From Candidatus Uhrbacteria bacterium (GTDB lineage: Bacteria; Patescibacteriota; Patescibacteriia; UBA9934), in NCBI GenBank assembly GCA_963822405.1, contig CAWGHH010000002.1, positions 266,766 to 330,765 of the forward strand: a stretch of 64,000 nucleotides of DNA. Reading direction: 5' to 3'. A program made the translations under genes and the position numbers. Shown here piece after piece: positions 2,729 to 64,000 of this stretch. The notes beneath the pieces are model-generated. The model was not told where the DNA came from. It saw nothing but the letters and a program-made list of their open reading frames with translations, and searched no databases. Positions within the stretch are counted from its first letter, which is position 1. Each line of letters starts with the position of its first letter.

Positions 2729-2869
2729 ACCCCCTCTAGTTGAGAAGGCCTACAATGAGGTTACAATAGGCGGACTAACTGGGCAACCCGGTGGCTCTAA
2801 ACGAAAAAGCCCCCAGTACGGACGTATCCGTACAAGGGCCTCTTTCATAGTGATGGTAGGATACCATAC

Positions 2870-2985
2870 AGTTTTGTCATTGCGAGGGATCTCCGTAGCT
2901 TCGAGCGAAGGAGATGCCCGAAGCAACCTCACGAGATTGCTTCGACTCAAACGATTACGTTTGGTCTCGCAAAGACTGAAATACT
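2870..2985 (+). repeat. Structured interspersed repeat, copy A (cloverleaf-like, about 110 nt)
   Basis: gtcattgcgagggatctccgtagcttcgagcgaaggagatgcccgaagcaacctcacgagattgcttcgac...tggtctcgcaaagac. Near-identical to 14676-14783 except the third hairpin. Terminal inverted repeat gtcattgcgag / ctcgcaaagac. Ends 17 nt before the uvrD start. Confidence 0.6.
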
Positions 2986-3001
2986 AATCACCAGCAATTG
3001 T

Positions 3002-5932
3002 ATGTCTGATCTTCTCGAAGGCCTGAACCCAGAACAACTCGCGGCCGTGACCCATGGCGAAGGTCCGCTCATGATTATTGCGGGGGCGGGAACGGGGAAG
3101 ACAAAGGTGGTGACCACGCGCATTGCGTGGTTGATTGACCAGAAACTCGCCGAGCCGAATGACATTCTCGCGCTGACGTTTACTGACAAGGCAGCGAATG
3201 AAATGGAGGAACGAGTCGACCGTCTTTTGCCGATGGGTTATCTCGATCTCAACATTTCCACCTTTCACTCTTTTTGCGAAAAGGTTTTGCGTGAACATGG
3301 AATTCATATTGGTATTCCGTCGGACTTCAAGTTGTATACCGAGGTTGATTGTTGGTTGCTCATGCGTCGCAACCTTGATAGATTCGAGCTCGACTATTTC
3401 AAACCGCGTGGTTCGCCAACAAAATTCTTGCGACAACTACTTTCTCATTTTTCGAAGTGTAAGGACGAGGGTATCTCCCCCGAGAAATATTCTATTGCAG
3501 TTGAAGAACTCGCAAAGGTTTTGTCGAAGGGTCCAGCAATGCTCGACGAGGACAAGCTCGAAATACAAAAATGGCAGGAACTATCCGGCGCTTACGCCAT
3601 GTACGAGACACTCTTATCCGAACAGCACGCTATCGATTTCGGCGGCTTGCTTCTATTAGCGCTTGAGTTATTCAGAACTCGACCAAATGTCCTAGCGGAA
3701 TATCTCGCGCGATTCAAGTACGTTATTGTCGACGAGTTTCAAGACACAAACAGCATTCAATATGCGCTCGTCAAATTGTTAACTGGTCCAAAGCGCAATG
3801 TTACGGTCGTGGGCGACGACGATCAAGCAATCTACAAGTTTCGTGGCGCCGCCCTCGCCAATATTTTAGAGTTTAGAACTGACTACCCGGATACAGCGCG
3901 TGTTGTGCTTACCAGAAACTATAGAAGTGGCGCGACAATTCTCGACGCTGCACATAAACTTATTCAGACGAATAATCCTCATCGTTTAGAAGCGAGCGAA
4001 GGTTTATCAAAAAAACTACAATCGCAAATTGAACATGCAGGTCTCGTCCATCACCTTCACTGCGCAACAGCTGTCGAGGAAGTCGAATCCGTCATCAACG
4101 AAATTATTGCTAAGCACGAAAACGGGGAAGGGGACTGGAACGATTTTGTAATTCTCGCACGCTCGAATGATGCAGCTGATCCGTTTCTCGAAGCCCTTGA
4201 GCGAGTTGGCGTTCCGTATCACTTCGTGGCCATGTCTGGTTTGTACACGAAACCGATTATCCTAGACTCGATGGCTTACATGCGCGTAGTGTACGAGCCG
4301 TATAACTCGCCAGCGATGTATCGAATCCTGAGTCATCCTCGTCTCGGCCTCACCGAGTCCGATCTTTCAGCGTTAATGCAATATGTGCGCAAGAAAAATG
4401 GCGCAGCAATTATTGACGGCATGCGTTCGCTCGGTCAGGAAGCTGGAGTGTCACTCGATGGGTCAACTCGACTAAACGAGATTGTTCGAATTATCGAAAA
4501 CCTACGGGACAAAGCAAAGCGTTTGCCAGTCACCGAGCTGTTCGTTTCGGTTCTCAAAGATACCGGTCTACTCGGCGACATGCGAATCATGCCTGAAGCT
4601 GATCAGCAGGAAGTATTCCGACACCTAGAAGGTTTCCTGGCTCGCCTGAAGCGCTACGTTGTCGCCAGTCCGGACAATAAGCTGTTACCCGGCTTCTTAG
4701 AGGAGTTCGACGCTGAACGCGAGGCAGGGGAGGCTGGTGGTTTGAAGGCTGACACCGAGGAGGGGCCCGATGTCGTCAATGTCATGACTATTCACGCCGC
4801 GAAGGGCCTCGAGTTCAAATATGTGTTTGTGGTGAACATGATCGAGCAACGTTTCCCCTCAGTTTCGCGCTCCGACCAACTTCCTCTCCCCCCAACGCTC
4901 GTCCGCAAAGTCGATGCCGCTCTGGACGATCACGTCGCCGAGGAACGTCGTCTGTTCTATGTGGCCATGACTCGCGCTAAGCAGGGTTTGTATTTATGTT
5001 CGGCGGAAGATTACGGCGGTACTCGTAAGCGAAAACCGTCGAGGTTCCTCGCCGAGTTAGGTTACGAAGTGCAACCGACCGAAAAGAAAAAGAAAATGAG
5101 CACGGACGATATTCTCGATGAACGAGGCAAGATTGTAACCAGTTCCGGCGAGGCCGATATCAAATTGCCGACAAAATTCTCTTTCTCTCAAGTCGCCGCT
5201 TTCGGTTCATGTCCTCTCCAGTACAAGTACGCTCATATTCTCAAAATCCCGACGTTTGGCCGTCATCAGTTCAGCTTCGGCCAAAGCATGCACTTAACCC
5301 TTGAAAAGTTCGTCAAAGAAATGCTCCCCGCAGAATCAACAACCCTTTCTAGCCCTTTATTGCCCTTTCGAACCTTTCCTTCACTCCGTCAGCTTCTCGA
5401 TATGTACGCTGCATCATTCATCGACGAATGGTACCCAGATTCGAAGACTCGTGAACAGTATCGTCAGCAGGGCGTCGATTCTCTCACAGAGTTCCATCGT
5501 AAAGTGGTCGAGAATCAACCTAAGCCGATTATCCTTGAGGCCGGCTTCACTCTAAAGATCGGCGACATCTTGATGAAAGGACGTATCGACAGAATCGACG
5601 CGGTCGAAGGTGGCGTTGAGATTATCGACTACAAGACCGGCCGGTTCAAAGAAAAGCTGGATTGGGATGACCGTCGCCAGCTGATCTTGTACGCTCTGGC
5701 CGCTGAGCAATGTTTCAATCCGCCCCTCGTCGTCAAAGCGCTAACGTACTATTATGTTGAGACAAACGAAACGATGAGTTTTGCCCCAACTGACAAGGAC
5801 AAGGAAAAACTACTAGACGAGATCAAAGAAACCGTCGGCGCAATTAGAACGAGTACGTTCGAGCCGAAACCGGGACCATTTACTTGTAAGTATTGTGACT
5901 TTAAGGACATTTGCCCGTTTTCGCAACAATAA
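3002..5932 (+). CDS. UvrD/PcrA-family helicase fused to a C-terminal PD-(D/E)XK (RecB/Cas4/AddB-like) Fe-S nuclease domain
   Basis: 976 aa. Walker A AGAGTGKT, VDEFQDTN, VGDDDQAIYKFRGA and TRNYRSG helicase motifs. C-terminal nuclease core DRIDAVEGGVEIIDYKTG plus Cys cluster GSCPLQY...CKYCDFKDICPF. Confidence 0.85.
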   Translation: MSDLLEGLNPEQLAAVTHGEGPLMIIAGAGTGKTKVVTTRIAWLIDQKLAEPNDILALTFTDKAANEMEERVDRLLPMGYLDLNISTFHSFCEKVLREHGIHIGIPSDFKLYTEVDCWLLMRRNLDRFELDYFKPRGSPTKFLRQLLSHFSKCKDEGISPEKYSIAVEELAKVLSKGPAMLDEDKLEIQKWQELSGAYAMYETLLSEQHAIDFGGLLLLALELFRTRPNVLAEYLARFKYVIVDEFQDTNSIQYALVKLLTGPKRNVTVVGDDDQAIYKFRGAALANILEFRTDYPDTARVVLTRNYRSGATILDAAHKLIQTNNPHRLEASEGLSKKLQSQIEHAGLVHHLHCATAVEEVESVINEIIAKHENGEGDWNDFVILARSNDAADPFLEALERVGVPYHFVAMSGLYTKPIILDSMAYMRVVYEPYNSPAMYRILSHPRLGLTESDLSALMQYVRKKNGAAIIDGMRSLGQEAGVSLDGSTRLNEIVRIIENLRDKAKRLPVTELFVSVLKDTGLLGDMRIMPEADQQEVFRHLEGFLARLKRYVVASPDNKLLPGFLEEFDAEREAGEAGGLKADTEEGPDVVNVMTIHAAKGLEFKYVFVVNMIEQRFPSVSRSDQLPLPPTLVRKVDAALDDHVAEERRLFYVAMTRAKQGLYLCSAEDYGGTRKRKPSRFLAELGYEVQPTEKKKKMSTDDILDERGKIVTSSGEADIKLPTKFSFSQVAAFGSCPLQYKYAHILKIPTFGRHQFSFGQSMHLTLEKFVKEMLPAESTTLSSPLLPFRTFPSLRQLLDMYAASFIDEWYPDSKTREQYRQQGVDSLTEFHRKVVENQPKPIILEAGFTLKIGDILMKGRIDRIDAVEGGVEIIDYKTGRFKEKLDWDDRRQLILYALAAEQCFNPPLVVKALTYYYVETNETMSFAPTDKDKEKLLDEIKETVGAIRTSTFEPKPGPFTCKYCDFKDICPFSQQ

Positions 5933-13406: not shown

Positions 13407-14668
13407 TCGACATGAAATTGTTCCGTGAGAATCCAAACTCTTTCCGTGATGCCTCACGCGCTAAGAATATTGAAATCGATGTTGATCGAATTCTTGAACT
13501 CGATCGTCGCGTTCGCCTCTTGAAGACTGAACTTGAAGGTATCAGCGCTCAGAAGAACAATGTTTCAAAGCTCATTCCAAAGGCTTCGGCTGACGAGCGT
13601 AAACAGTTGATCGAAGAAATGCGCGGAGTCGACGGTCGAGCCGACAAGCTCGCCTCAGAACTCGCCCCAATCGAAACTGAACTCGAGGATTTGCTTTATC
13701 ACATCCCGAACCCTTCTCTCTCTGACGTTAAAATTGGTAAGAGCGAAGATGAAAATGAAGTCTTGCGCGAGGTCGGCGAAAAGCCGGTTTTCGATTTTCC
13801 GATTAAGGATCATCTTGAACTCGGCGAGGCGTTGGGCATTATCAACGTTGAGCAAGCTGCAAAGGTTAGTGCGTCTAGATTCAACTATTTTATCGGCGAC
13901 GGAGCCATGCTTGCGTATGCAATTCAGCAGTACGCTATGGGCGCCGCAATGAAGAAAGGCTTTGTGCCAGTTGTTGTTCCACACCTGGTGAACGCGCACA
14001 CCATGCGTGCAATGGGCTACCTCGAACATGGGGGACACGATGAGATTTACTACTTTCCGAAAGATAACTTGTATTTGATCGGCACAGCCGAACAGCCACT
14101 TGGCGGTTTGCACATGGATCAAATGCTGAGCGAAAAAGAATTACCACTTCGCTACGTTGGTCTCTCAACTGCGTTCCGTCGCGAAGCCGGTAGTTACGGT
14201 AAGGACACAAAGGGTATCATCCGCATGCACGAATTCCAGAAGGTCGAAATGTTCAGCTGGACCACTCCCGAAAACTCAGACGCAGAACACGAACTATTGT
14301 TGTCGATCGAGGAAGATCTAGTAAAGGGCCTTGGCGTGCCATACCGTGTTATCAAGCAATGTACCGGTGACCTTGGTCTCCCAGCTGCTCGAAAGTATGA
14401 CATCGAATCCTGGATGCCGACCCAGAATACGTATCGCGAGACGCATTCGACTAGCACCTGCACAGACTTCCAATCCCGTCGCTTGAACACCCGCTACAAG
14501 AATGGGGAAGGGGAGACAAAACTAGTCCATACGCTTAACGGCACCGCGTTCGCTATTGGCCGGATCATGGCCGTCATTCTAGAAAACTTCCAGAATGCAG
14601 ACGGATCAGTAACTATTCCTGAAGCCTTGAGACCATTTATGGGAGGGAAGTCGGTTCTAAAGAAATAG
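13403..14668 (+). CDS. serS: Serine--tRNA ligase
   Basis: 421 aa. N-terminal coiled-coil arm and class II core (FRREAGSYGKDTKGIIRMHEFQKVEMF, GTAFAIGR). Confidence 0.95.
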   Translation: MIDMKLFRENPNSFRDASRAKNIEIDVDRILELDRRVRLLKTELEGISAQKNNVSKLIPKASADERKQLIEEMRGVDGRADKLASELAPIETELEDLLYHIPNPSLSDVKIGKSEDENEVLREVGEKPVFDFPIKDHLELGEALGIINVEQAAKVSASRFNYFIGDGAMLAYAIQQYAMGAAMKKGFVPVVVPHLVNAHTMRAMGYLEHGGHDEIYYFPKDNLYLIGTAEQPLGGLHMDQMLSEKELPLRYVGLSTAFRREAGSYGKDTKGIIRMHEFQKVEMFSWTTPENSDAEHELLLSIEEDLVKGLGVPYRVIKQCTGDLGLPAARKYDIESWMPTQNTYRETHSTSTCTDFQSRRLNTRYKNGEGETKLVHTLNGTAFAIGRIMAVILENFQNADGSVTIPEALRPFMGGKSVLKK

Positions 14669-14675
14669 TATTGTC

Positions 14676-14783
14676 AGTCATTGCGAGGGATCTCCGTAGC
14701 TTTGAGCAAAGGAGATGCCCGAAGCAACCTCACGAGATTGCTTCGACCCAGCTGGATACAGCTGGTCTCGCAAAGACGGAAAA
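14676..14783 (+). repeat. Structured interspersed repeat, copy B
   Basis: gtcattgcgagggatctccgtagctttgagcaaaggagatgcccgaagcaacctcacgagattgcttcgacccagctggatacagctggtctcgcaaagac. Fills the serS-alr intergenic region and ends 4 nt before the alr ATG. Confidence 0.6.
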
Positions 14784-14787
14784 AATT

Positions 14788-15933
14788 ATGCATCACCGAA
14801 CTTGGGTTGAAATCAGTGGCCCGGCGCTTCAGCATAATGTTTCGGAGCTGAAACGAACGCTGAATCCCGGCGTTCGTTTTTGTGCGATCGTAAAAGCGAA
14901 CGCGTATGGGCATGGTTTGGCCGAGGTCATATCGATTCTCAAGAACGAAGAGGTCGAACTTTTCGGCGTCGATTCCGTTGACGAAGCACTAACCGTGCGT
15001 GCACTCTGCCCAGAAGCAACAATTTTTGTCATGGGCGCAACTATTCCCGAGCGGCTCGCCGACATTGTCAGAGGTCGAATGATCCAAATGGTTTCCGGTG
15101 TCGCCGAGCTCAAAGCAATCCGCGAGGTTGCGCGCGAGTTACATTTGCCAGCAATGATCACGCTTGAGATCGAAACCGGACTACATCGGCTGGGCACGGA
15201 AGGCAGGGAACTGGCCGCTATACTCGACGAACTGAAATTTTCGTGCGGACTCGTCTACGTCGTCAGCGTCGCCTCGCATCTCTCGAGCGCCGAGGATCAA
15301 TCGTTGGCTCGCATCACCACCGGTCAGTACGACAAGTTTTGGAAGGCCGTCAGCGACATAACCGCAAAAGGCCATCAGCCAGAGCATCTACACATTGCTT
15401 GCTCGGCCGCGGGCATCATGCATGAGCTCGACCATGGGACACATGTAAGATTCGGGATCAATATGTACGGCCTATGGCCTTCAAGCGACGTCAAACGAGC
15501 AGGAACACTCGGCAAACGCCATGCTGATGTTAAGCCGGTGCTTTCGTGGAAGACATCAATTGCTCAAGTCAAAGAAGTCCATCCCGGCGACGCCATTGGT
15601 TACGGTCCAACAGTTATTGTAAATCGGCTAACTCGCGTAGCCGTCCTGCCGGTCGGGTACTACGACGGTTTTGACCGAGGATTTTCGAATATTAGCGCTG
15701 TTGTTATTCACGGGGTTCGTTGTCCCGTACTTGGTCGCGTGTGCATGAACATGACCATGGTGGACGTGTCGGCAGTTCCTGGAGTTCTTTCCTCGCAAAC
15801 TCCCGTGACTCTCCTTGGTCGCGACGGCGTACAGACAATTACCGCTGACGAACTGGCCGAGAAAATTGGAACGATCAACTACGAGGTCGTCACGCGCATT
15901 AATCCACTTCTCCCACGGGTTATAGTAAGTTAA
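14788..15933 (+). CDS. alr: Alanine racemase
   Basis: MHHRTWVEISGPALQHN start. PLP-lysine motif AIVKANAYGHG. C-terminal beta domain. The track ORF begins at 14671, but its first 39 codons only translate the repeat. Confidence 0.9.
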   Translation: MHHRTWVEISGPALQHNVSELKRTLNPGVRFCAIVKANAYGHGLAEVISILKNEEVELFGVDSVDEALTVRALCPEATIFVMGATIPERLADIVRGRMIQMVSGVAELKAIREVARELHLPAMITLEIETGLHRLGTEGRELAAILDELKFSCGLVYVVSVASHLSSAEDQSLARITTGQYDKFWKAVSDITAKGHQPEHLHIACSAAGIMHELDHGTHVRFGINMYGLWPSSDVKRAGTLGKRHADVKPVLSWKTSIAQVKEVHPGDAIGYGPTVIVNRLTRVAVLPVGYYDGFDRGFSNISAVVIHGVRCPVLGRVCMNMTMVDVSAVPGVLSSQTPVTLLGRDGVQTITADELAEKIGTINYEVVTRINPLLPRVIVS

Positions 15934-41926: not shown

Positions 41927-43026
41927 ATTTCCTTTAGTTTTCCCATCTGCTCTTCTCTCGTAAACTGCTCAAGCACTCGCACTCTCCCCCGCGAACCCAT
42001 GGAGGCGCGCAGTTCAGGGCTGTCAATGAGTATCTGCAAGCCCTTCACAAGGTCATCGGTAGTGTCATCGACGAGCACGCCCGTCTTGCCGTCTACTATC
42101 GCTTCAGCCACTCCCCCGGTGCGTGTACCAACGACAGGGAGGCCGAACAGATTCGCTTCGAGGTACACGATACCAAACCCTTCACGATCAATACTCGATT
42201 GCGTGGTCGGCATGACAAAAATATCTGCGTCAGCGTAAATTTCAGGCAAGGTTAAGTCATCAGCATCCGTAATCATCGTTACGCGCTCTCCGAGTCCAAG
42301 CTCAATGATCTTCGCCTTAATCTTCTCTTTCATTGGCCCGTCACCTACGATCGTGTATTTCGTATTCGACAGCTTAGTCATCGCGTCGAGCACCTTCAAA
42401 TGCCCCTTACGCTCTACAAGCCGGGCGACGGTCAATAACGTTACGTGTTTGTCATCCTGAGCAGAGCGAAGGATCTGATTGGTTGGCACAGGGAGGCCAA
42501 TCGCCCCAGCCGCCAGTTTCGCCAAATCCCTCAAATCAGTCCATCCTTTTCCCTTCCTCACTCCCTTTGACGCCTCAACTAACGCATCCGCCACCGGCGG
42601 ATATATGCATAGTACGGGCCGACTTCTATGTCGGCCCTCTCTCAGGCTCTCGACCTCACTTTTCAATGCCTCCGAATTTACTACAACCGCCTCCGCTCCC
42701 CTCAGGATTCTCCCGGTCAACCACCTCTTCCACGCATTTCTCCTCGCCAAATCAAAATCCATGCCGTGCAAAAATATCACGTAAGGCTTTGATCCCATCA
42801 TCTTTGCTAACCACGCCACAGTTCCTACTGGCAAAATCTCATGTATAAAATACAGATCTGTCACTTGATTACTCTGCCAAAAAATCGGAAAAATTAATTC
42901 ATAACTTGGTCGAGCAATCCGTTCAATAGCAACAGACGGATAAGTCAAAACAATCGCGTCAATATACCGCGCAATACCGCCACGAGCACCCTCTTTTTGA
43001 AGTGTTGGAATAGCTACTCGTTTCAT
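41914..43026 (-). CDS. Glycosyltransferase family 4 (GT-B)
   Basis: 370 aa. C-terminal EGFGIVYLEANLFGLPVVGTRTGG (E-x7-E motif region). A repeat-derived QILRSAQDDK segment lies between the two Rossmann halves. Confidence 0.85.
   Translation of the reverse strand: MKRVAIPTLQKEGARGGIARYIDAIVLTYPSVAIERIARPSYELIFPIFWQSNQVTDLYFIHEILPVGTVAWLAKMMGSKPYVIFLHGMDFDLARRNAWKRWLTGRILRGAEAVVVNSEALKSEVESLREGRHRSRPVLCIYPPVADALVEASKGVRKGKGWTDLRDLAKLAAGAIGLPVPTNQILRSAQDDKHVTLLTVARLVERKGHLKVLDAMTKLSNTKYTIVGDGPMKEKIKAKIIELGLGERVTMITDADDLTLPEIYADADIFVMPTTQSSIDREGFGIVYLEANLFGLPVVGTRTGGVAEAIVDGKTGVLVDDTTDDLVKGLQILIDSPELRASMGSRGRVRVLEQFTREEQMGKLKEICNQ
42451..42483. repeat. Short palindromic repeat embedded in-frame in the GT4 glycosyltransferase gene
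   Basis: gtcatcctgagcagagcgaaggatctgattgg. Encodes QILRSAQDDK in the inter-domain linker on the minus strand. Confidence 0.5.
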
Positions 43027-50006: not shown

Positions 50007-50598
50007 TCGGAGTAGCCGATTTCACACCAACATCCTTCGTGCCGGCGTTGAAAATATACGAGTAAGGTCGCACAGCTTCTGTGAAGGCCGAATGATCGAT
50101 ATCCGTGCCCAACGCTGCATACTTCTGCAAAACAGCCGAAAGACCATGCGCTGCATTCACCGTAAGGAGATAAGGCTCGCTTAATTTGTCATCTTCCAAA
50201 AGAGCAATAAGTTGATTGAACTTTGTGTCCTGTTTCTTGATGAACGCGTAGTCCTCAGCAAATGTTGGTGCACTCTCCGCATCTCCTCTCATGAAAAAAC
50301 CATTAAACATGCCCTCGATATCGACAATCAAACACATCGCATCATTACTCACGAAGGCTGATGGATATGCATAATTTGAAGTGTCAGCCTGATTGTTCTT
50401 TGCGATTCCAGCATTAAGCGCTGCGATGACGGATGCGGAAAGTGGCTTGTTAGATCCCAACTCACGAGCAATGTCTGCACTCGTAACAGCATGCGGAATC
50501 TGACTCGCCACAAGTAATGACCCGAAGGCTAGACCAACAACCGAACCAAGCAACATGCCCGGAATAAAGTGGGCGAGGAAATGAGATTTTGATTCCAT
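49963..50598 (-). CDS. Signal-anchored extracytoplasmic protein, 211 aa (paralogous N-terminus with next gene)
   Basis: MESKSHFLAHFIPGMLLGSVVGLAFGSLLVASQIPH, then a non-repetitive domain. N-terminal 36 aa is near-identical to that of 50600-51412. Confidence 0.5.
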   Translation of the reverse strand: MESKSHFLAHFIPGMLLGSVVGLAFGSLLVASQIPHAVTSADIARELGSNKPLSASVIAALNAGIAKNNQADTSNYAYPSAFVSNDAMCLIVDIEGMFNGFFMRGDAESAPTFAEDYAFIKKQDTKFNQLIALLEDDKLSEPYLLTVNAAHGLSAVLQKYAALGTDIDHSAFTEAVRPYSYIFNAGTKDVGVKSATPSGGKVPEFQCPELE

Positions 50599-50599
50599 A

Positions 50600-51412
50600 T
50601 TAATTCATCATGCTAGCCTCAACGTCCACGGTCTCATTGTCCGTCCAACCGTTCATCATCCAGGCCTCGCCAAAAGAAGTGTGAATAGGGCCGTCGCCTT
50701 TATAGCCACCAAATGTCCTGGTCTTCATGTCGAAGATCCACAAAATACCTCGTTCTGACATGGCGTTACCAAGAGCAGCTACAACGGCGATCTTAGAACC
50801 GTCAGGTGAGAACTTAGCGTCGAACTGCGTGTAATGCTGATCCGGGAGAGCGTATGTTTGAACATCGTTCGCGTCATCAATCGCTCGAATCTGCAACGAG
50901 ATCGTCGGTCCGATATCTTGGAAAAACTGTGCCAAGTATTTTTCGTCCGGGGAAATGTCGAGCCCCTGGCGAATACCCCCCTGTCCGAAAGTCGGATCAA
51001 GCAGTCGATCAACCTTACCAGTACAAGTATTCACTCGAATCATGTCATATGTCACTGGATACAAAATGTAACCGCCAAGGCCATCTGGATTAAAATCAAG
51101 ATAGGCATTTATAGAAGCAGAATTAACTTGATAAAAGTTCCCAGCATTAAAGAGACCGTTCGGAAAATCTACTTCAGAAATTTTCTTGTCCTTCAAATAT
51201 ATACCAAAGTTGTGTTCGTCGAGAGCCTTCCAGGAAAGATCCTTAAACGAACCAACACAATCACTCGTCACAGCACCACCTTGCGCCAACTGCTTGGTTG
51301 CAGAATGTGGAATCTGACTCGCTACAAGCAACGAACCAAACGCGAGACCAACAACTGAACCGAGAAGAATGCCGGGAATAAAGTGAACGAGAAAATGGGA
51401 TTTGGATTGCAT
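50600..51412 (-). CDS. Signal-anchored protein with WD40-like (TolB-type) beta-propeller repeats
   Basis: MQSKSHFLVHFIPGILLGSVVGLAFGSLLVASQIPH anchor. Repeats DISPDEKYLAQFF and FSPDGSKIAVVAALG typical of TolB-like propellers. Confidence 0.55.
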   Translation of the reverse strand: MQSKSHFLVHFIPGILLGSVVGLAFGSLLVASQIPHSATKQLAQGGAVTSDCVGSFKDLSWKALDEHNFGIYLKDKKISEVDFPNGLFNAGNFYQVNSASINAYLDFNPDGLGGYILYPVTYDMIRVNTCTGKVDRLLDPTFGQGGIRQGLDISPDEKYLAQFFQDIGPTISLQIRAIDDANDVQTYALPDQHYTQFDAKFSPDGSKIAVVAALGNAMSERGILWIFDMKTRTFGGYKGDGPIHTSFGEAWMMNGWTDNETVDVEASMMN

Positions 51413-51500
51413 ATACTAGGAAGTATACACGATCCAATATCCCATTTTTAGGCCTTTCGCCTACGCTCAAGGACTTTATGTGCACCATCTCATTCAAATA

Positions 51501-57257: not shown

Positions 57258-57334
57258 TGGTGCGCTCAGGACGATTCGAACGTCCGACCCCTTCCTTCGG
57301 AGGGAAGTACTCTATCCAGCTGAGCTATGAGCGC
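57258..57334 (-). tRNA. tRNA-Arg (anticodon CCG), CCA encoded
   Basis: Minus-strand GCGCTCATAGCTCAGCTGGATAGAGTACTTCCCTCCGAAGGAAGGGGTCGGACGTTCGAATCGTCCTGAGCGCACCA. Cloverleaf with anticodon loop CTCCGAA. Close to E. coli tRNA-Arg(CCG). Confidence 0.9.
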
Positions 57335-58287: not shown

Positions 58288-59439
58288 ATGAAATGTCCTA
58301 ATCCCGAACGTTGCGGCTCTTGTGGCTGGTCTCATATCTCCTACGAGAAACAGCTCAAGCAAAAGCTCTCTGATATCAACGGTTCTTTTGCCATTAAAAA
58401 ATTAGATTTGAAGGTCGAGGAAATCGCCGCCTCTCCTATCACCCATCACTACCGTAATCGAATGGATTTTGTAATTGATTGGCAGGGCAACGTCGGCCTG
58501 CGTGAAAAGGGCAAGTGGTGGAGCGTGATCGACAATCATCCTTGTTTCATTGCTGACCAAAAAATCGAAGACGCGTTTTTCATCACCCGCGACTGGGCAA
58601 AGAAATGTGGTCTATCGTTCTGCGACCGAAAAGCTAACACTGGGTTCTTGCGCTACGCCGTCATTCGTTCAACGACTCTCGGCGAAACCATGATCATCAT
58701 CGTCACCAGCGCACCAAAGGATGCGGACGAAGAAGCAGCCGCCAAAAAAGCGCTCGAGGAATTAACTGTCTTATCGAAAGCAACCACGGTGGTCTGGTCA
58801 ATCAACCACACCATTAGCGATGTATCGTTCGGCGACGAACTTAGAACCATCTCTGGTCCTGGTGTTATCGAGGAAACAATTGCCGGTTATCGCTACAAGA
58901 TCTCTCCAAACGCGTTCTTCCAAACCAACCCACACGGTGCGGCGCAATTATTGGATACTGTTCGCGAATACGCGACCAGTGGGTCGACAGAGACGTCGAC
59001 CCCTACATCGGAACAAACGTTATTGGATCTCTACTGCGGAACTGGGTTCTTCGCTGTTGCCCTGGCCGCCTCATTCAAGAAAACAATCGGCGTAGAAATG
59101 GTCAAGGAAGCGATCGTGGACGCTAAAGTCAACGCAGAATTGAACAATGCAATGGTCGAGTTTCACGACGTAAAAACCGAAGACTTCGACTGGATGAAAA
59201 TTGGTGCTGACGTTGTCATCCTTGATCCACCACGTGGTGGCATGGTGGACAAAGCCCTCCAGGATATAATTGCCGCCAAGCCCGAAACCATTGTCTACGT
59301 CTCCTGTAACTACAAAAACTTCGCCCGCGAAATGGTGATCCTGCAAAAGTACTACGACGTCGAAGCCATGCGAGCTATAGACATGTTCCCCCACACGCCA
59401 CATGTGGAGCTGGTAACTAAGCTTGTGCGTAAGGTCTAG
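58288..59439 (+). CDS. 23S rRNA (uracil-5)-methyltransferase RlmD/RumA family
   Basis: Start MKCPNPERCGSCGW (Fe-S Cys cluster). SAM motifs LLDLYCGTGFF and ILDPPRGG. Contains a repeat-derived SGSTETSTPTSEQ insert. Confidence 0.8.
   Translation: MKCPNPERCGSCGWSHISYEKQLKQKLSDINGSFAIKKLDLKVEEIAASPITHHYRNRMDFVIDWQGNVGLREKGKWWSVIDNHPCFIADQKIEDAFFITRDWAKKCGLSFCDRKANTGFLRYAVIRSTTLGETMIIIVTSAPKDADEEAAAKKALEELTVLSKATTVVWSINHTISDVSFGDELRTISGPGVIEETIAGYRYKISPNAFFQTNPHGAAQLLDTVREYATSGSTETSTPTSEQTLLDLYCGTGFFAVALAASFKKTIGVEMVKEAIVDAKVNAELNNAMVEFHDVKTEDFDWMKIGADVVILDPPRGGMVDKALQDIIAAKPETIVYVSCNYKNFAREMVILQKYYDVEAMRAIDMFPHTPHVELVTKLVRKV
58980..59011. repeat. GGGTCGAC-hairpin repeat, copy inside rlmD coding sequence
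   Basis: tgggtcgacagagacgtcgacccctacatcgg, versus tgggtcgacagaggcgtcgacccctactctg at 61040-61070 (28/31 identical). Internal 8-bp palindrome GGGTCGAC/GTCGACCC. Confidence 0.6.
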
Positions 59440-61039: not shown

Positions 61040-61070
61040 TGGGTCGACAGAGGCGTCGACCCCTACTCTG
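61040..61070. repeat. GGGTCGAC-hairpin repeat, copy in the uppS 5' leader
   Basis: See 58980-59011. Lies 1-2 nt upstream of the uppS track start. Confidence 0.6.
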
Positions 61071-61074
61071 AAAA

Positions 61075-61938
61075 CTAGGAATTCATCGCAGCTTCCATCG
61101 CGCTTGCGCGGGAGACGGACAACTTGCGGTAGGCCAAAGCGTAAGATAGGAAACCACCAATAGATACAAGAACCATCCAACAGAACAAGGCAACTCCAAG
61201 AATCAAACCTACAAGACCCATGAGAATTACACCAATTGTAGCCATCTTCATCAAAGCGAGAACGCCCATGAGCATGACGACGACACCGAAAATTTCGTAG
61301 GCTGGCAAAATTGCAATGTAAGCAATGAGTGCAATAGCTGCAGAAAGAAGAGCGATGCTCAAGAGATCGCCGTTCGTTAGAGCCCAGCTAGCCTTAAGAG
61401 CTTGCACTGGGCCAACGTCTTTTCTGTCCACGATGGTGAAGAGAGCAAAAGTACAGCCAAGACCAATCATGATGCCTGGGATAACAAGGACTACGAGACC
61501 AACGGCTACCGCTACGAGATACAAAACGTAAGTCAAAATAGCCACGCCAATCAACTTACCGTCAAAAGCAAAAATCTCATTGATCGAGAGCTTCTTACCG
61601 TCTACTACGGCTAGAGACAAACGAATCGCGCCAACACCAACCGCCAAAGAGAATAAAACCAGCAACACGAATGACAACATGCTAACGAGCCATCCCGGAA
61701 GAATTGCTCCGAGGATAGCTGAAACGATCACGATTGCCAGGAAACCAGCACAAGTTACAATAACGAATTTTACGAACTGACCCCATGTCTTAACCGCTAG
61801 CTCAACACCCTGAGTTGCGAGCTGTCCCGGTGAAAGTGTCTCGGCCTGTTTCCAGGTAAAATTCATGTTCATAGAAATCATTAAAGATTTGCTATAGTTT
61901 ACTACAGATTCTGGTGAGTCGCAACCAAAGTTGTACAA
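61075..61938 (-). CDS. Polytopic membrane protein, unknown function
   Basis: 287 aa, about 6 TM helices. Confidence 0.45.
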   Translation of the reverse strand: MYNFGCDSPESVVNYSKSLMISMNMNFTWKQAETLSPGQLATQGVELAVKTWGQFVKFVIVTCAGFLAIVIVSAILGAILPGWLVSMLSFVLLVLFSLAVGVGAIRLSLAVVDGKKLSINEIFAFDGKLIGVAILTYVLYLVAVAVGLVVLVIPGIMIGLGCTFALFTIVDRKDVGPVQALKASWALTNGDLLSIALLSAAIALIAYIAILPAYEIFGVVVMLMGVLALMKMATIGVILMGLVGLILGVALFCWMVLVSIGGFLSYALAYRKLSVSRASAMEAAMNS

Positions 61939-61970
61939 AACTCAAATCTTCTGTATCATCTAGCCCTTAT

Positions 61971-62822
61971 ATGAAATCTGGATTCGTCGCTATCATTGGC
62001 CGTTCTAACGTGGGTAAATCCACGCTTCTTAACGCGCTCGTAGGTTCTAAGGTGGCCATCACTACCCCAAAGCCTCAAACTACCCGTCAGCCTATTCAAG
62101 GCGTTATCTCTTCCCCTCGTGGTCAGGCTGTTATGGTTGATACCCCAGGTATCATGCAGAAAGCTCGTGACCAGCTAACCAAACGTCTTCTCCAGTACGC
62201 TAAAGATTCGCTAAAAGAAGTAGATGCGATCTTGTACGTTGTGGATCCAACTCGTGCGGTAGGCGACGAAGAAAAACAAGCTTTCAAATTAATTGAACAC
62301 GCTACCCAACCAAAACTTTTAGTCATTAACAAAGTTGATGACAAGGACGCTCGTAGATATATTGACTACTATCGTGACTTAGCAAAACAGTTTGACGCTT
62401 ACGCTGAAGTTTCAGCCAAAGCTGGAACGGACATGGACATGGTGAAGAACTGGATCTTTGATCAGCTCCCAGAAGGCGAATACATGTACCCTGAGTTCCA
62501 AGTAACAAACCAAAGCAATGAAACCTGGATGGCCGAGCTCATCCGCGAAAAATTGTTCTTGCGTCTGCGTGAAGAAGTTCCATACTCTACTCACGTAGAA
62601 GTCAACGAAATCACAACTCGCAAAGATGGCACTGTTTATGTGAACGCCACCATCTTTACCAGCGCTGAACGCTATAAGCCGATGATCATTGGTGCCGGTG
62701 GACGTGGCATTAAAGAAATTGGCCAATCAACTCGCCGGGAACTTGAGGCCGTAGGCAACAAGAAGTATTTCCTGGACCTACATGTAGAAGTTGATCCGCA
62801 GTGGTTTGATAAGATCACGTAG
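61971..62822 (+). CDS. era: GTPase Era
   Basis: MKSGFVAIIGRSNVGKSTLLN (G1), DTPG (G3), NKVD (G4), C-terminal KH domain. The track ORF starts upstream at 61914. Confidence 0.9.
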   Translation: MKSGFVAIIGRSNVGKSTLLNALVGSKVAITTPKPQTTRQPIQGVISSPRGQAVMVDTPGIMQKARDQLTKRLLQYAKDSLKEVDAILYVVDPTRAVGDEEKQAFKLIEHATQPKLLVINKVDDKDARRYIDYYRDLAKQFDAYAEVSAKAGTDMDMVKNWIFDQLPEGEYMYPEFQVTNQSNETWMAELIREKLFLRLREEVPYSTHVEVNEITTRKDGTVYVNATIFTSAERYKPMIIGAGGRGIKEIGQSTRRELEAVGNKKYFLDLHVEVDPQWFDKIT

Positions 62823-62823
62823 C

Positions 62824-62906
62824 AAAACAAAACAGTCAGTACTGCTTCGGAAATGGAGTCGGATTACCTCCTGGCATTTCCTCAGCAGTACTGACTGTTT
62901 TGTTTT
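62824..62906. terminator. 22-bp perfect inverted repeat (bidirectional terminator) between era and a convergent lipoprotein gene
   Basis: aaaacaaaacagtcagtactgc ... gcagtactgactgttttgtttt, with a 39-nt loop containing a nested ggaaatg/catttcc pair. A/T runs on both sides. Confidence 0.7.
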
Positions 62907-62909
62907 ACC

Positions 62910-63824
62910 TTATTCCACGAGTTCATTCGGCCGTTGCATTGTGACGCTCGTGATTGAATAACCAAGATCATTTTTAAGCTCGGATAGTGACGTGAACATC
63001 CCTGGACCAAGTGCCCATGGCAATAACGCAACCTTTAAGATAATCGGATTATCAGAGTTAGCTAGAATCGTATAGTTCGCGAAAGCGTTCGAAGCCTCGA
63101 TCGTTTTAACTTGAACGTCTACCCTATTTATTTTTAAATCATAACTCCCCCAATCGCCCTTAGCCGTTAATTTTGTAAAATCTTTATTAGTTGTTGGCGA
63201 GTCTGCAATCTTCCCCTGGAGTTTATCAAGTGCTGACTTGGCCGAGTCAGTGAAATCTAGCGCGTCCTTCAGTGTAGAGTCGAACAGCCCTAATTGGACG
63301 TGAGACGAACGAGTTGCGACCAACTCATCATACTGAGCCTTTGACAACCAAATTATACTGTCACTGGTTTGAGATACATCGTACTCATCTTCCGGCCAGT
63401 ATGATGGCAACAACAGACGTTCTGCGTTGCCGAGCGCATCGGTTCGAACCACTCCCTTGAGCGTCACTTGTTCATATACTGGCTCAGGAATTTTTGTCGC
63501 CTCACCCACTGGTGAATGAGTCATGGCGTATTCTCTGGCCGTTTTGCTGGCAGAAGTTTCTCGTTTCACATCCATCATCCAAGAAAGAACCGCAAAAACT
63601 CCAGCTTGGTGTTCTTCAACAGTAACATTCTTGACGGACGGCGCGTCACCAAGACCAAAAGAAAATGCGCTCTGAGAAATAGCGAATGAGTCGCCAACCA
63701 TTAAATCCAGCTTCTCAGCATCAAACTCTGGTAACTTTTCACCAAACGGCAAAGATACACATCCAGCGCCTAGGAAAAGCGGGGTTAACAACCCCGCCAT
63801 AGCGAGAATGAGTCGAGATCGCAT
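62910..63824 (-). CDS. Lipoprotein, unknown function
   Basis: Start MRSRLILAMAGLLTPLFLGAGCVS (lipobox). The track ORF extends upstream to 63926 across the preceding stop context. Confidence 0.5.
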   Translation of the reverse strand: MRSRLILAMAGLLTPLFLGAGCVSLPFGEKLPEFDAEKLDLMVGDSFAISQSAFSFGLGDAPSVKNVTVEEHQAGVFAVLSWMMDVKRETSASKTAREYAMTHSPVGEATKIPEPVYEQVTLKGVVRTDALGNAERLLLPSYWPEDEYDVSQTSDSIIWLSKAQYDELVATRSSHVQLGLFDSTLKDALDFTDSAKSALDKLQGKIADSPTTNKDFTKLTAKGDWGSYDLKINRVDVQVKTIEASNAFANYTILANSDNPIILKVALLPWALGPGMFTSLSELKNDLGYSITSVTMQRPNELVE

Positions 63825-63825
63825 A

Positions 63826-64000
63826 TTATTTCTTGCCGCTAGCCCATTCCATGATTTTTTCTTTGTTCGCTGATCCGCAGATGAATGCGTCTGTTTCCGT
63901 ATTGTGAAAAAATGGAACCCCGCCACATCTACCCTCGTCTACTGCTTCTAGCTTTTTCAAGTTATCCGCGTTATTCCAAACCTCGAGCTTTTCGATCTTC
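63826..64000 (-). CDS. Thioredoxin/glutaredoxin-like small protein, partial (N-terminus beyond window)
   Basis: Minus-strand ...KIEKLEVWNNADNLKKLEAVDEGRCGGVPFFHNTETDAFICGSANKEKIMEWASGKK-stop. GGVPxF...G pattern resembles the glutaredoxin C-terminal half. Confidence 0.3.
   Translation of the reverse strand, partial: KIEKLEVWNNADNLKKLEAVDEGRCGGVPFFHNTETDAFICGSANKEKIMEWASGKK

Follow-up and report, generated by a model that had tools for sequence, protein, structure and literature searches.

Two insertions of a hairpin-repeat pair, probably of the Ssn/NTS kind, in a Candidatus Uhrbacteria genome

The window analysed here is a stretch of 64,000 nucleotides (nt) from contig CAWGHH010000002.1 of a Candidatus Uhrbacteria genome (positions 266,766 to 330,765), in which two copies of a short structured repeat are found, both on the plus strand and both 101 nt long (2876-2976 and 14677-14777). 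Copy 1 lies 25 nt before the ATG (3002) of a gene coding for a UvrD-type helicase with a PD-(D/E)XK nuclease domain; copy 2 lies 10 nt before the ATG (14788) of the gene for alanine racemase (Alr), with SerS upstream. The first-pass annotation of this DNA, made from the sequence alone, had reported two structured repeat copies ahead of unrelated genes, and both points hold. Its limits, 2870-2985 and 14676-14783, gave the right location and a slightly loose extent; the strand and the position upstream of an ATG were also correct, the distances being those given above rather than 4-17 nt. The 19-mer head of the element occurs twice in the window against 0.01 occurrences expected, and no third copy of the element is present in the 64 kb. 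The copies belong to a repeat family, some members of which enclose a gene for a small GIY-YIG nuclease, and each is built of two hairpin units, left and right, in opposite orientation. Their parts are the following.

2876..2976, plus strand: copy 1, complete, a head-to-head pair of two hairpin units
2876..2886, plus strand: head of the left unit, GTCATTGCGAG, preceded by a T that gives a TGTC tag; 5' arm of the closing stem
2887..2918, plus strand: variable apical hairpin of the left unit (hairpin 1 of the first-pass annotation)
2919..2927, plus strand: tail of the left unit, CGAAGCAAC; family consensus CGAAGCAAT-C
2928..2935, plus strand: 8-nt centre, CTCACGAG, the position of the GIY-YIG gene in gene-bearing relatives
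2936..2944, minus strand: tail of the right unit, ATTGCTTCG on the plus and CGAAGCAAT on the minus strand
2945..2965, minus strand: variable apical hairpin of the right unit (hairpin 3 of the first-pass annotation), caaacg-atta-cgtttg
2966..2976, minus strand: head of the right unit, CTCGCAAAGAC on the plus and GTCTTTGCGAG on the minus strand, a head variant common elsewhere in the family
14677..14777, plus strand: copy 2, complete, same layout at an offset of +11801
14677-14687, 14688-14719, 14720-14728 and 14729-14736, plus strand: head, hairpin, tail and centre of copy 2
14737-14745, 14746-14766 and 14767-14777: tail, swapped hairpin and head of the right unit of copy 2

The two copies match at 69 of positions 1-71, in agreement with the near-identity over the first 70 nt or so noticed earlier, and at 14/14 of the last 14 positions. 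Within positions 1-71 they differ only by C27T and G32A, which are the two partners of a single base pair at the tip of hairpin 1 (cttcg/cgaag to ctttg/caaag), that is, a compensatory change. Hairpin 3 is exchanged as a whole, caaacg-atta-cgtttg of copy 1 corresponding to ccagctg-gata-cagctgg of copy 2, and each version is a perfect stem with a 4-nt loop, exactly as first described. The closing stem that had been proposed between the two ends, GTCATTGCGAG and CTCGCAAAGAC, is also present, with 10 of 11 positions paired and a single A.A mismatch. The DNA flanking copies 1 and 2 gives no alignment; a segmental duplication including the flanks is therefore rejected.

The folding check suggested in the first-pass annotation returned a stable structure for both copies, the minimum-free-energy fold being a four-way junction on either strand. 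RNA folding energies of the sense strand are -45.2 and -49.5 kcal/mol (z -5.7 and -6.7), those of the reverse strand -48.2 and -52.7 kcal/mol, about 3 kcal/mol better than sense in both copies; with DNA parameters the z values are -6.2 and -7.5. Two inverted units, each with its own apical hairpin, naturally fold into the cloverleaf. Read as units, the window copies have the form tGTC-ATTGC...GCAAC-C and, on the minus strand, GTC-TTTGC...GCAAT-C, the base preceding GTC giving TGTC at the left end of copy 1, CGTC at the right end of copy 2 and being A at the other two ends. Folded alone with DNA parameters, one unit keeps GTCA unpaired and forms a short stem of TTGC with GCAA, which leads through a purine-rich GAG/GAA internal loop to the apical hairpin.

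Comparison with related genomes shows how the copies arrived at their sites. By its SerS and helicase homologues the window belongs in Patescibacteria, near genomes labelled Uhrbacteria. In the window SerS ends with its stop at 14668 and Alr begins with its ATG at 14788, and the serS-alr junction measures 1-3 nt in three syntenic relatives (L242, L243/244 and L245/246, numbered here as loci; SerS identity 88%, 83% and 78%). Copy 1 sits in a 273-nt gap with a divergent 112-aa open reading frame (ORF) on one side and the helicase on the other. In L247, L248 and L249 the helicase, 81-87% identical, begins with MDANPLLEG or MPANPLLED about 12 nt past TTGAGA-16-TACAAT, a conserved promoter-like site that is retained in the window. 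There, a frameshifted remnant of the ancestral helicase start (MDANP...) is recognisable at 2777-2790 as AACTGGGCAACCCG, followed by about 220 additional nt and then by a new helicase start at 3002 (MSDLLEG), about 235 nt downstream of the promoter-like site; nothing else of the ancestral start survives, and translation of the helicase must now begin at 3002. The two stretches concerned are listed below.

14669..14787, plus strand: serS-alr spacer of 119 nt, 101 nt of which are the element
2792..3010, plus strand: block of about 220 nt without counterpart in three syntenic relatives, located after codon 5 of the ancestral helicase gene

Within the block lie copy 1, the new start codon (3002) and two small perfect hairpins, one at 2816-2833 and one at 2853-2867. 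Relatives lack the element at both sites; thus both copies are insertions that postdate the split from the compared lineages, and one of them has remodelled the 5' end of a repair-helicase gene. Neither is accompanied by a target-site duplication. In an independent assembly of the same organism, two contigs stop within the element, 27 nt and about 62 nt into it, as is usual for assemblers at repeats. The small hairpins of the block, GTACGGA-CGTA-TCCGTAC at 2816-2833 (7 bp, 4-nt loop) and ATGGTA-GGA-TACCAT at 2853-2867 (6 bp, 3-nt loop), are both outside the 101-nt element and each occurs once in the window. A reading frame is open from 2800 to 3002 across the whole element, with 67 codons, no stop and no start codon.

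Further members of the family were collected by a scan of one genome per species with the pattern GTCATTGCGAG-N65-95-CTCGCAAWGAC and by a metagenome scan with a half-element pattern, each of which returned at least 120 stretches with the element. Record titles in the genome scan refer to Alphaproteobacteria, Gammaproteobacteria, Bacteroidota, Chloroflexota, Planctomycetota, Desulfobacterota, Clostridia, Patescibacteria, Zixibacteria and a Rickettsiales endosymbiont, and the names in the titles of scanned loci include Bradyrhizobium, Mucilaginibacter, Anaerolineae, Desulfobacterales and Tisiphia. The family is very large and spread over many bacterial groups. Together with the two insertions recognised against syntenic relatives, this wide dispersal supports one of the options of the first-pass annotation, a mobile element resembling repetitive extragenic palindromic (REP) sequences or miniature inverted-repeat transposable elements (MITEs). 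The element is also carried by 71 viral contigs; 10-13 of these (including L304, L292, L320, L310, L270 and L286) have several ORF clusters in common, so that one group of related viral contigs carries the repeats and could help spread them.

Every member is built in the same way: the head GTCATTGCGAG is followed by a variable module, by a tail (C)GAAGCAAT-C with a few variable complementary bases and by a variable centre, after which comes the mirror image, the consensus of the unit being (Y)GTC-ATTGC-GAG-[variable hairpin]-(C)GAA-GCAAT-C. Family statistics cover the first 240 loci from both scans, which contain 699 heads, 474 of them in head-to-head pairs; neighbouring units form 237 head-to-head pairs versus 54 tail-to-tail and 75 tandem ones. 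The head is preceded by C or T in 179/192 parsed pairs, and two different unit types are joined in 183/193. The variable hairpin modules are length-variable and do not align, and per-module hairpin statistics were used instead of a covariance model: 272 distinct modules of 4-65 nt were counted, nearly all of them self-complementary, and those of at least 10 nt fold at -0.24 kcal/mol per nt versus -0.10 when shuffled, with GAA, GTA or GCA as typical loops. The tail stem is extended by at least 3 complementary variable bases in 36% of pairs versus about 1.6% estimated for random pairing. Within one genome a few unit types recur and recombine, and variants of one type often differ by compensated changes (for instance CACCTGAAAGGTGC and CACCCGCAGGGTGC); some contigs are saturated, with 31 heads in 14.7 kb. 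The replacement of hairpin 3 is thus normal behaviour in this family, the right units of the two window copies carrying different modules. It follows that the claim of selection on structure rather than sequence stands for the variable apical hairpins; it fails for the closing stem and hairpin 2, the sequences of which recur across genomes labelled as many bacterial groups. Direct repeats are absent from the flanks of the element, both in the window and in 125 family members, and no palindromic target site emerged, complementarity of the flanks past the first 1-2 bases being found in 12/192 cases, barely above the control (5/190).

Bare heads, consisting of GTCGTTGCGAG and about 15 pyrimidine-rich nt, are found in tandem at 24-27-nt spacing directly upstream of complete units, as in L184 (1865-1955), with similar runs in L321, L322 and L323.

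The protein partner of the family came from clustering of 2078 ORFs of the loci, in which a single-domain GIY-YIG protein (PF01541) of 95-109 aa is encoded in 6 loci. In 5/6 the gene lies within about 60 nt of family heads; in the sixth, L129, it is flanked by a related variant, GTCATTCTGGAG, and the nearest family heads are about 130 nt away. A pair of units encloses the gene in L160, L184, L321, L322 and L323/324. When homologues were sampled from the protein side, more than 120 clusters at 81% identity or more were obtained, mostly on short contigs, and 3/3 look-ups (L321, L322 and L323/324) returned the arrangement GTCATTGCGAG-X-GAAGCAAT-[gene]-ATTGCCAC-X'-CTCGCAATGAC, or, more fully, GTCATTGCGAG-gcacgatagtgcc-GAAGCAATctctggtaca-[ATG...TGA]-gATTGCCAC-gccccgacaagtcgggg-CTCGCAATGAC. 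The gene thus occupies in these relatives the position of the 8-nt centre of the window element. Many gene-less pairs of 74-97 nt, with the same left and right unit types, stand in rows beside the gene-bearing copy. The protein is 47% identical to a Neisseria gonorrhoeae ORF (tblastn E 1e-22, where the published limit for SsnA homology is E < 1e-10; PMC11893778), and this ORF is surrounded by nine canonical NTS within 3.3 kb. The family has a link to a GIY-YIG nuclease, a homologue of the SsnA-type gene that NTS flank in Neisseria. The best relatives in PDB are UPF0213 proteins (E 5e-5), and Pfam gives only PF01541.

A further homologue, 65% identical to the L160 query, is found on a Planktothrix agardhii plasmid (L326; NZ_LR882964.1, 18.8-19.2 kb), with an MmeI-type restriction-modification gene on one side and DISARM drmA on the other. 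The GIY-YIG homologues of L129 and L326 are flanked by a sister repeat family, GTCATTCTGAG...GAAGAATC, three tandem bare heads being included.

SsnA, described by Chenal et al. 2025 (PMC11893778), has 94 aa and a single GIY-YIG domain. It binds the NTS hairpin CGTCATTCCCGCGMAVGCGGGAATCYRG as single-stranded DNA only, not as double-stranded DNA or RNA, and cuts a few bases upstream of the hairpin. Cleavage depends on the 3 nt that precede the palindrome, and for binding the C that follows it matters most, while the identity of the loop is dispensable and loop extensions are tolerated; the NTS-ssnA-NTS arrangement was described as resembling an insertion sequence (PMC11893778). The positions conserved in the present family, namely GTC, ATT...AAT and the following C, are those that matter for SsnA, and the family varies where SsnA is indifferent. 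The family has in common with NTS and the Ssn-related motifs (SRM) a hairpin repeat that is oriented, with (C/T)GTC-AT as its 5' head, a stem ATT...AAT with a C directly after it and an apical part free to vary, hundreds of copies in some genomes, and a repeat-gene-repeat layout with a single-domain GIY-YIG gene of about 95 aa. They differ in that the family has an interruption in its stem (ATTGC-GAG ... GAA-GCAAT) in place of a perfect 8-bp palindrome, and a variable hairpin of 4-65 nt in place of the 4-nt loop, and in that its units mostly form tight head-to-head pairs folding into a four-way junction; the host here is a Patescibacteria genome, with no ssn gene detected in the 64-kb window.

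A second resemblance is to the CGTC-tagged REPs, among which Di Nocera et al. 2013 (PMC3733652) classed NTS/dRS3 as CGTC-1, a group comprising Neisseria dRS3 and Rickettsia RPE-6. According to that paper, CGTC repeats form head-to-head dimers, have no transposase and often lie in repair genes, including those of UvrD-type helicases. With these the present family shares the unpaired CGTC/TGTC tag, a stem starting with AT and a short CC(A)/CTC tail, the predominance of head-to-head dimers with frequent heterodimers, the lack of a tyrosine transposase, and insertions in or near DNA-repair genes, UvrD-type helicases included. However, the four CGTC families described there have perfect 8-9-bp stems and 4-5-nt loops, neither of which applies here, and the family peptides VIARS..DEAI and LLRFARND are missing from the CGTC part of the list of intragenic repeats (PMC3733652). 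A literature search gave no relevant match to sequence words of the element or to its encoded peptides, and nothing specific on REP in Patescibacteria. The kind of repeat is known, while the family and its presence in a candidate-phyla-radiation genome appear undescribed; as far as could be checked, the family is set apart from those on record by its poor match to the published SRM pattern, its interrupted stem and the peptide list.

On these grounds, each window copy probably consists of two hairpin-repeat units of the Ssn/NTS kind, paired head to head and without a gene. With two inverted units only 8 nt apart, the heads would pair with each other and the tails likewise, giving the cloverleaf. 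By analogy with SsnA, the cognate GIY-YIG nuclease would bind a unit solely in single-stranded DNA, as it arises in the course of replication, transformation or repair; the enzyme would read the GTC tag, the base of the stem and the C after the stem, and nick a few bases 5' of the unit. The apical hairpin, presumably unread by the nuclease, could then drift or be swapped freely as long as it remains a hairpin. The short form may spread like a MITE that depends on the gene-carrying form, a hypothetical step, and any effect on the expression of serS-alr or of the helicase would be a by-product of the landing site.

Several observations weigh against assigning the copies to the Ssn/NTS kind. The own stem of one unit is merely 4-5 bp with an internal loop, and a stable fold requires both units. 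The 64 kb hold two copies only, and no GIY-YIG gene was detected in them (tblastn E > 4). Among the first 241 loci, blastn found no close relative of the sub-type of the window other than a partial contig of the same organism. The gene-bearing examples come from few metagenome lineages, which may be interrelated, and none is labelled Patescibacteria. The published SRM pattern, HGTCWYN(0-2)YYVSBRHN(0-5)WNVSBRGN(0-2)RNCYNB (PMC11893778), matches 1/237 family pairs and no site in the window when run as a regular expression, and the NTS and NTSvar controls do match. Finally, transposition has, to our knowledge, been demonstrated for no Ssn/NTS element.

A bolder proposal, which we consider doubtful, is that the pairs of about 100 nt are non-autonomous derivatives of an unrecognised class of mobile elements whose sole gene is a small GIY-YIG single-stranded DNA nuclease, mobilised in trans via single-stranded hairpin intermediates and recently active in a reduced Patescibacteria genome. 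If true, orphan CGTC-type repeats would gain an enzyme that moves them, and the hypothesis of an NTS-ssn-NTS transposon would gain a testable case with two dated insertion events.

Among other explanations, it is improbable that the copies are a classical REP or REPIN mobilised by a REP-associated tyrosine transposase (RAYT, of the IS200/IS605-type Y1 kind), or a MITE whose parent was an ordinary insertion sequence bounded by terminal inverted repeats. The form of the element agrees with this: a palindromic head-to-head dimer, intergenic and without coding capacity, it shows no target-site duplication, as in IS200/IS605, and its family resembles the CGTC-tagged REPs of Di Nocera et al. 2013. 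REP/REPIN-RAYT systems and bacterial interspersed mosaic elements share with the family short hairpin units in inverted pairs, mosaic clusters, one associated gene flanked by repeats, recognition as single-stranded DNA hairpins and no target duplication; however, they have a GTAG tag and an HUH/Y1 transposase, neither of which was found with the family. A tblastn search with ten RAYT/TIRYT sequences (PMC3733652) and an IS200 TnpA sequence gave no match in 2.17 Mb of flanks from 320 loci, an earlier RAYT/Y1 tblastn run that included the window was negative as well, and Di Nocera et al. likewise report no transposase for CGTC repeats (PMC3733652). The only protein repeatedly enclosed by units is the GIY-YIG nuclease. 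As for MITEs, the likeness lies in a short non-coding form that has retained the two ends of a parent with a gene, and the difference in that the inverted ends here lack a target-site duplication and the parent carries a nuclease, not a known transposase.

Somewhat less credible still is a cis-regulatory RNA leader or an intercistronic RNA structure (riboswitch-like, attenuator or mRNA stabiliser) controlling the downstream gene. Both copies lie on the sense strand just before a start codon and would be transcribed, the RNA fold is very stable, and REP-type elements are known to stabilise upstream mRNA (PMC3733652). However, the downstream genes are unrelated to each other, and the same genes are expressed in relatives that lack the element. 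In the family the stems are conserved in sequence, and variation falls in the loops, the junction linkers and the side hairpins, a pattern opposite to that of structured RNAs, which speaks against an RNA function. Reverse complementation leaves the architecture unchanged, the antisense fold is the better one in both copies, and in 74 elements between co-directional genes the sense strand folds better in 35 and the antisense strand in 39. Permissive local Rfam runs, the check named in the first-pass annotation, gave no family match or other relevant hit, whether around either copy (E up to 10) or in four family loci (E up to 0.1); at gathering thresholds nothing was returned in the whole window or in 12 family loci. 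The local permissive runs were relied on, with the caution that the whole-window run at gathering thresholds missed a tRNA scoring 63.8 bits locally. A U-tract terminator is absent. The element is most likely a DNA-level selfish or nuclease-target element and not a regulatory RNA. The interpretation of the first-pass annotation is thus partly supported: its leaning towards RNA is opposed by the conserved stems and variable loops, the folding of both strands without sense bias, the lack of an Rfam match and the homology of the partner to a single-stranded DNA nuclease, and its options of a cis-regulatory leader or a small RNA are left without support.

Two other candidates were rejected: a tRNA-like element, ARAGORN being negative at both copies and the only tRNA of the window being the tRNA-Arg at 57258-57334, and a terminator, since no T-run is present at the element. 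Pfam and NCBIfam scans of the stop-free translations of the element gave no family match; therefore it is not a named Rickettsia palindromic-element domain of those libraries.

Template switching in quasi-palindromes reportedly yields compensatory-looking double changes in one event (the Ripley model and work by Monttinen and Loytynoja). Least probable of all, the copies would be inert debris, hairpins kept perfect by such switching rather than by selection or any protein, with two copies that arose through chance recombination. The one compensatory pair and the whole hairpin swap agree better with one-step events than with stepwise evolution, yet this reading fails to explain an 11-nt head and a 9-nt tail common to genomes labelled as many bacterial groups, the repeated enclosure of one nuclease gene and two independent insertions in one lineage.

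The assignment to the Ssn/NTS kind ties the repeat to a protein partner and to a published biochemical mechanism; many annotators have met it only as spurious small ORFs (peptides LLRFARND and RHCEE..RRSNP). The published Ssn target motif misses this very widespread class, with its interrupted stem and swappable apical hairpin, and therefore Ssn-type systems probably reach further than has been estimated, apparently as far as candidate-phyla-radiation bacteria. The two sites of the window provide clean comparisons of filled and empty states, which bear on whether such repeats are mobile.

The window contains some further features. A second, unrelated hairpin repeat with a GTAG tag, GTAGGGGTCGAC-N6-GTCGACCC, occurs in two copies that fit the pattern exactly, on the minus strand at 58981-59006 and 61041-61066, with 0 expected by chance, and in a weaker copy on the plus strand at 42612-42637; it looks like a classical GTAG-type REP. 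The tRNA-Arg(CCG) lies on the minus strand at 57258-57334 (ARAGORN; 63.8 bits in local Rfam). An inverted repeat at 62824-62906, with 32-nt arms that are 94% complementary and a 19-nt spacer, separates the convergent ORFs 61914-62822 (plus strand) and 62910-63926 (minus strand) and probably serves as a bidirectional terminator. At 50487-50600 and 51301-51414 lies a 114-nt direct repeat whose copies, 814 nt apart, are 82% identical.

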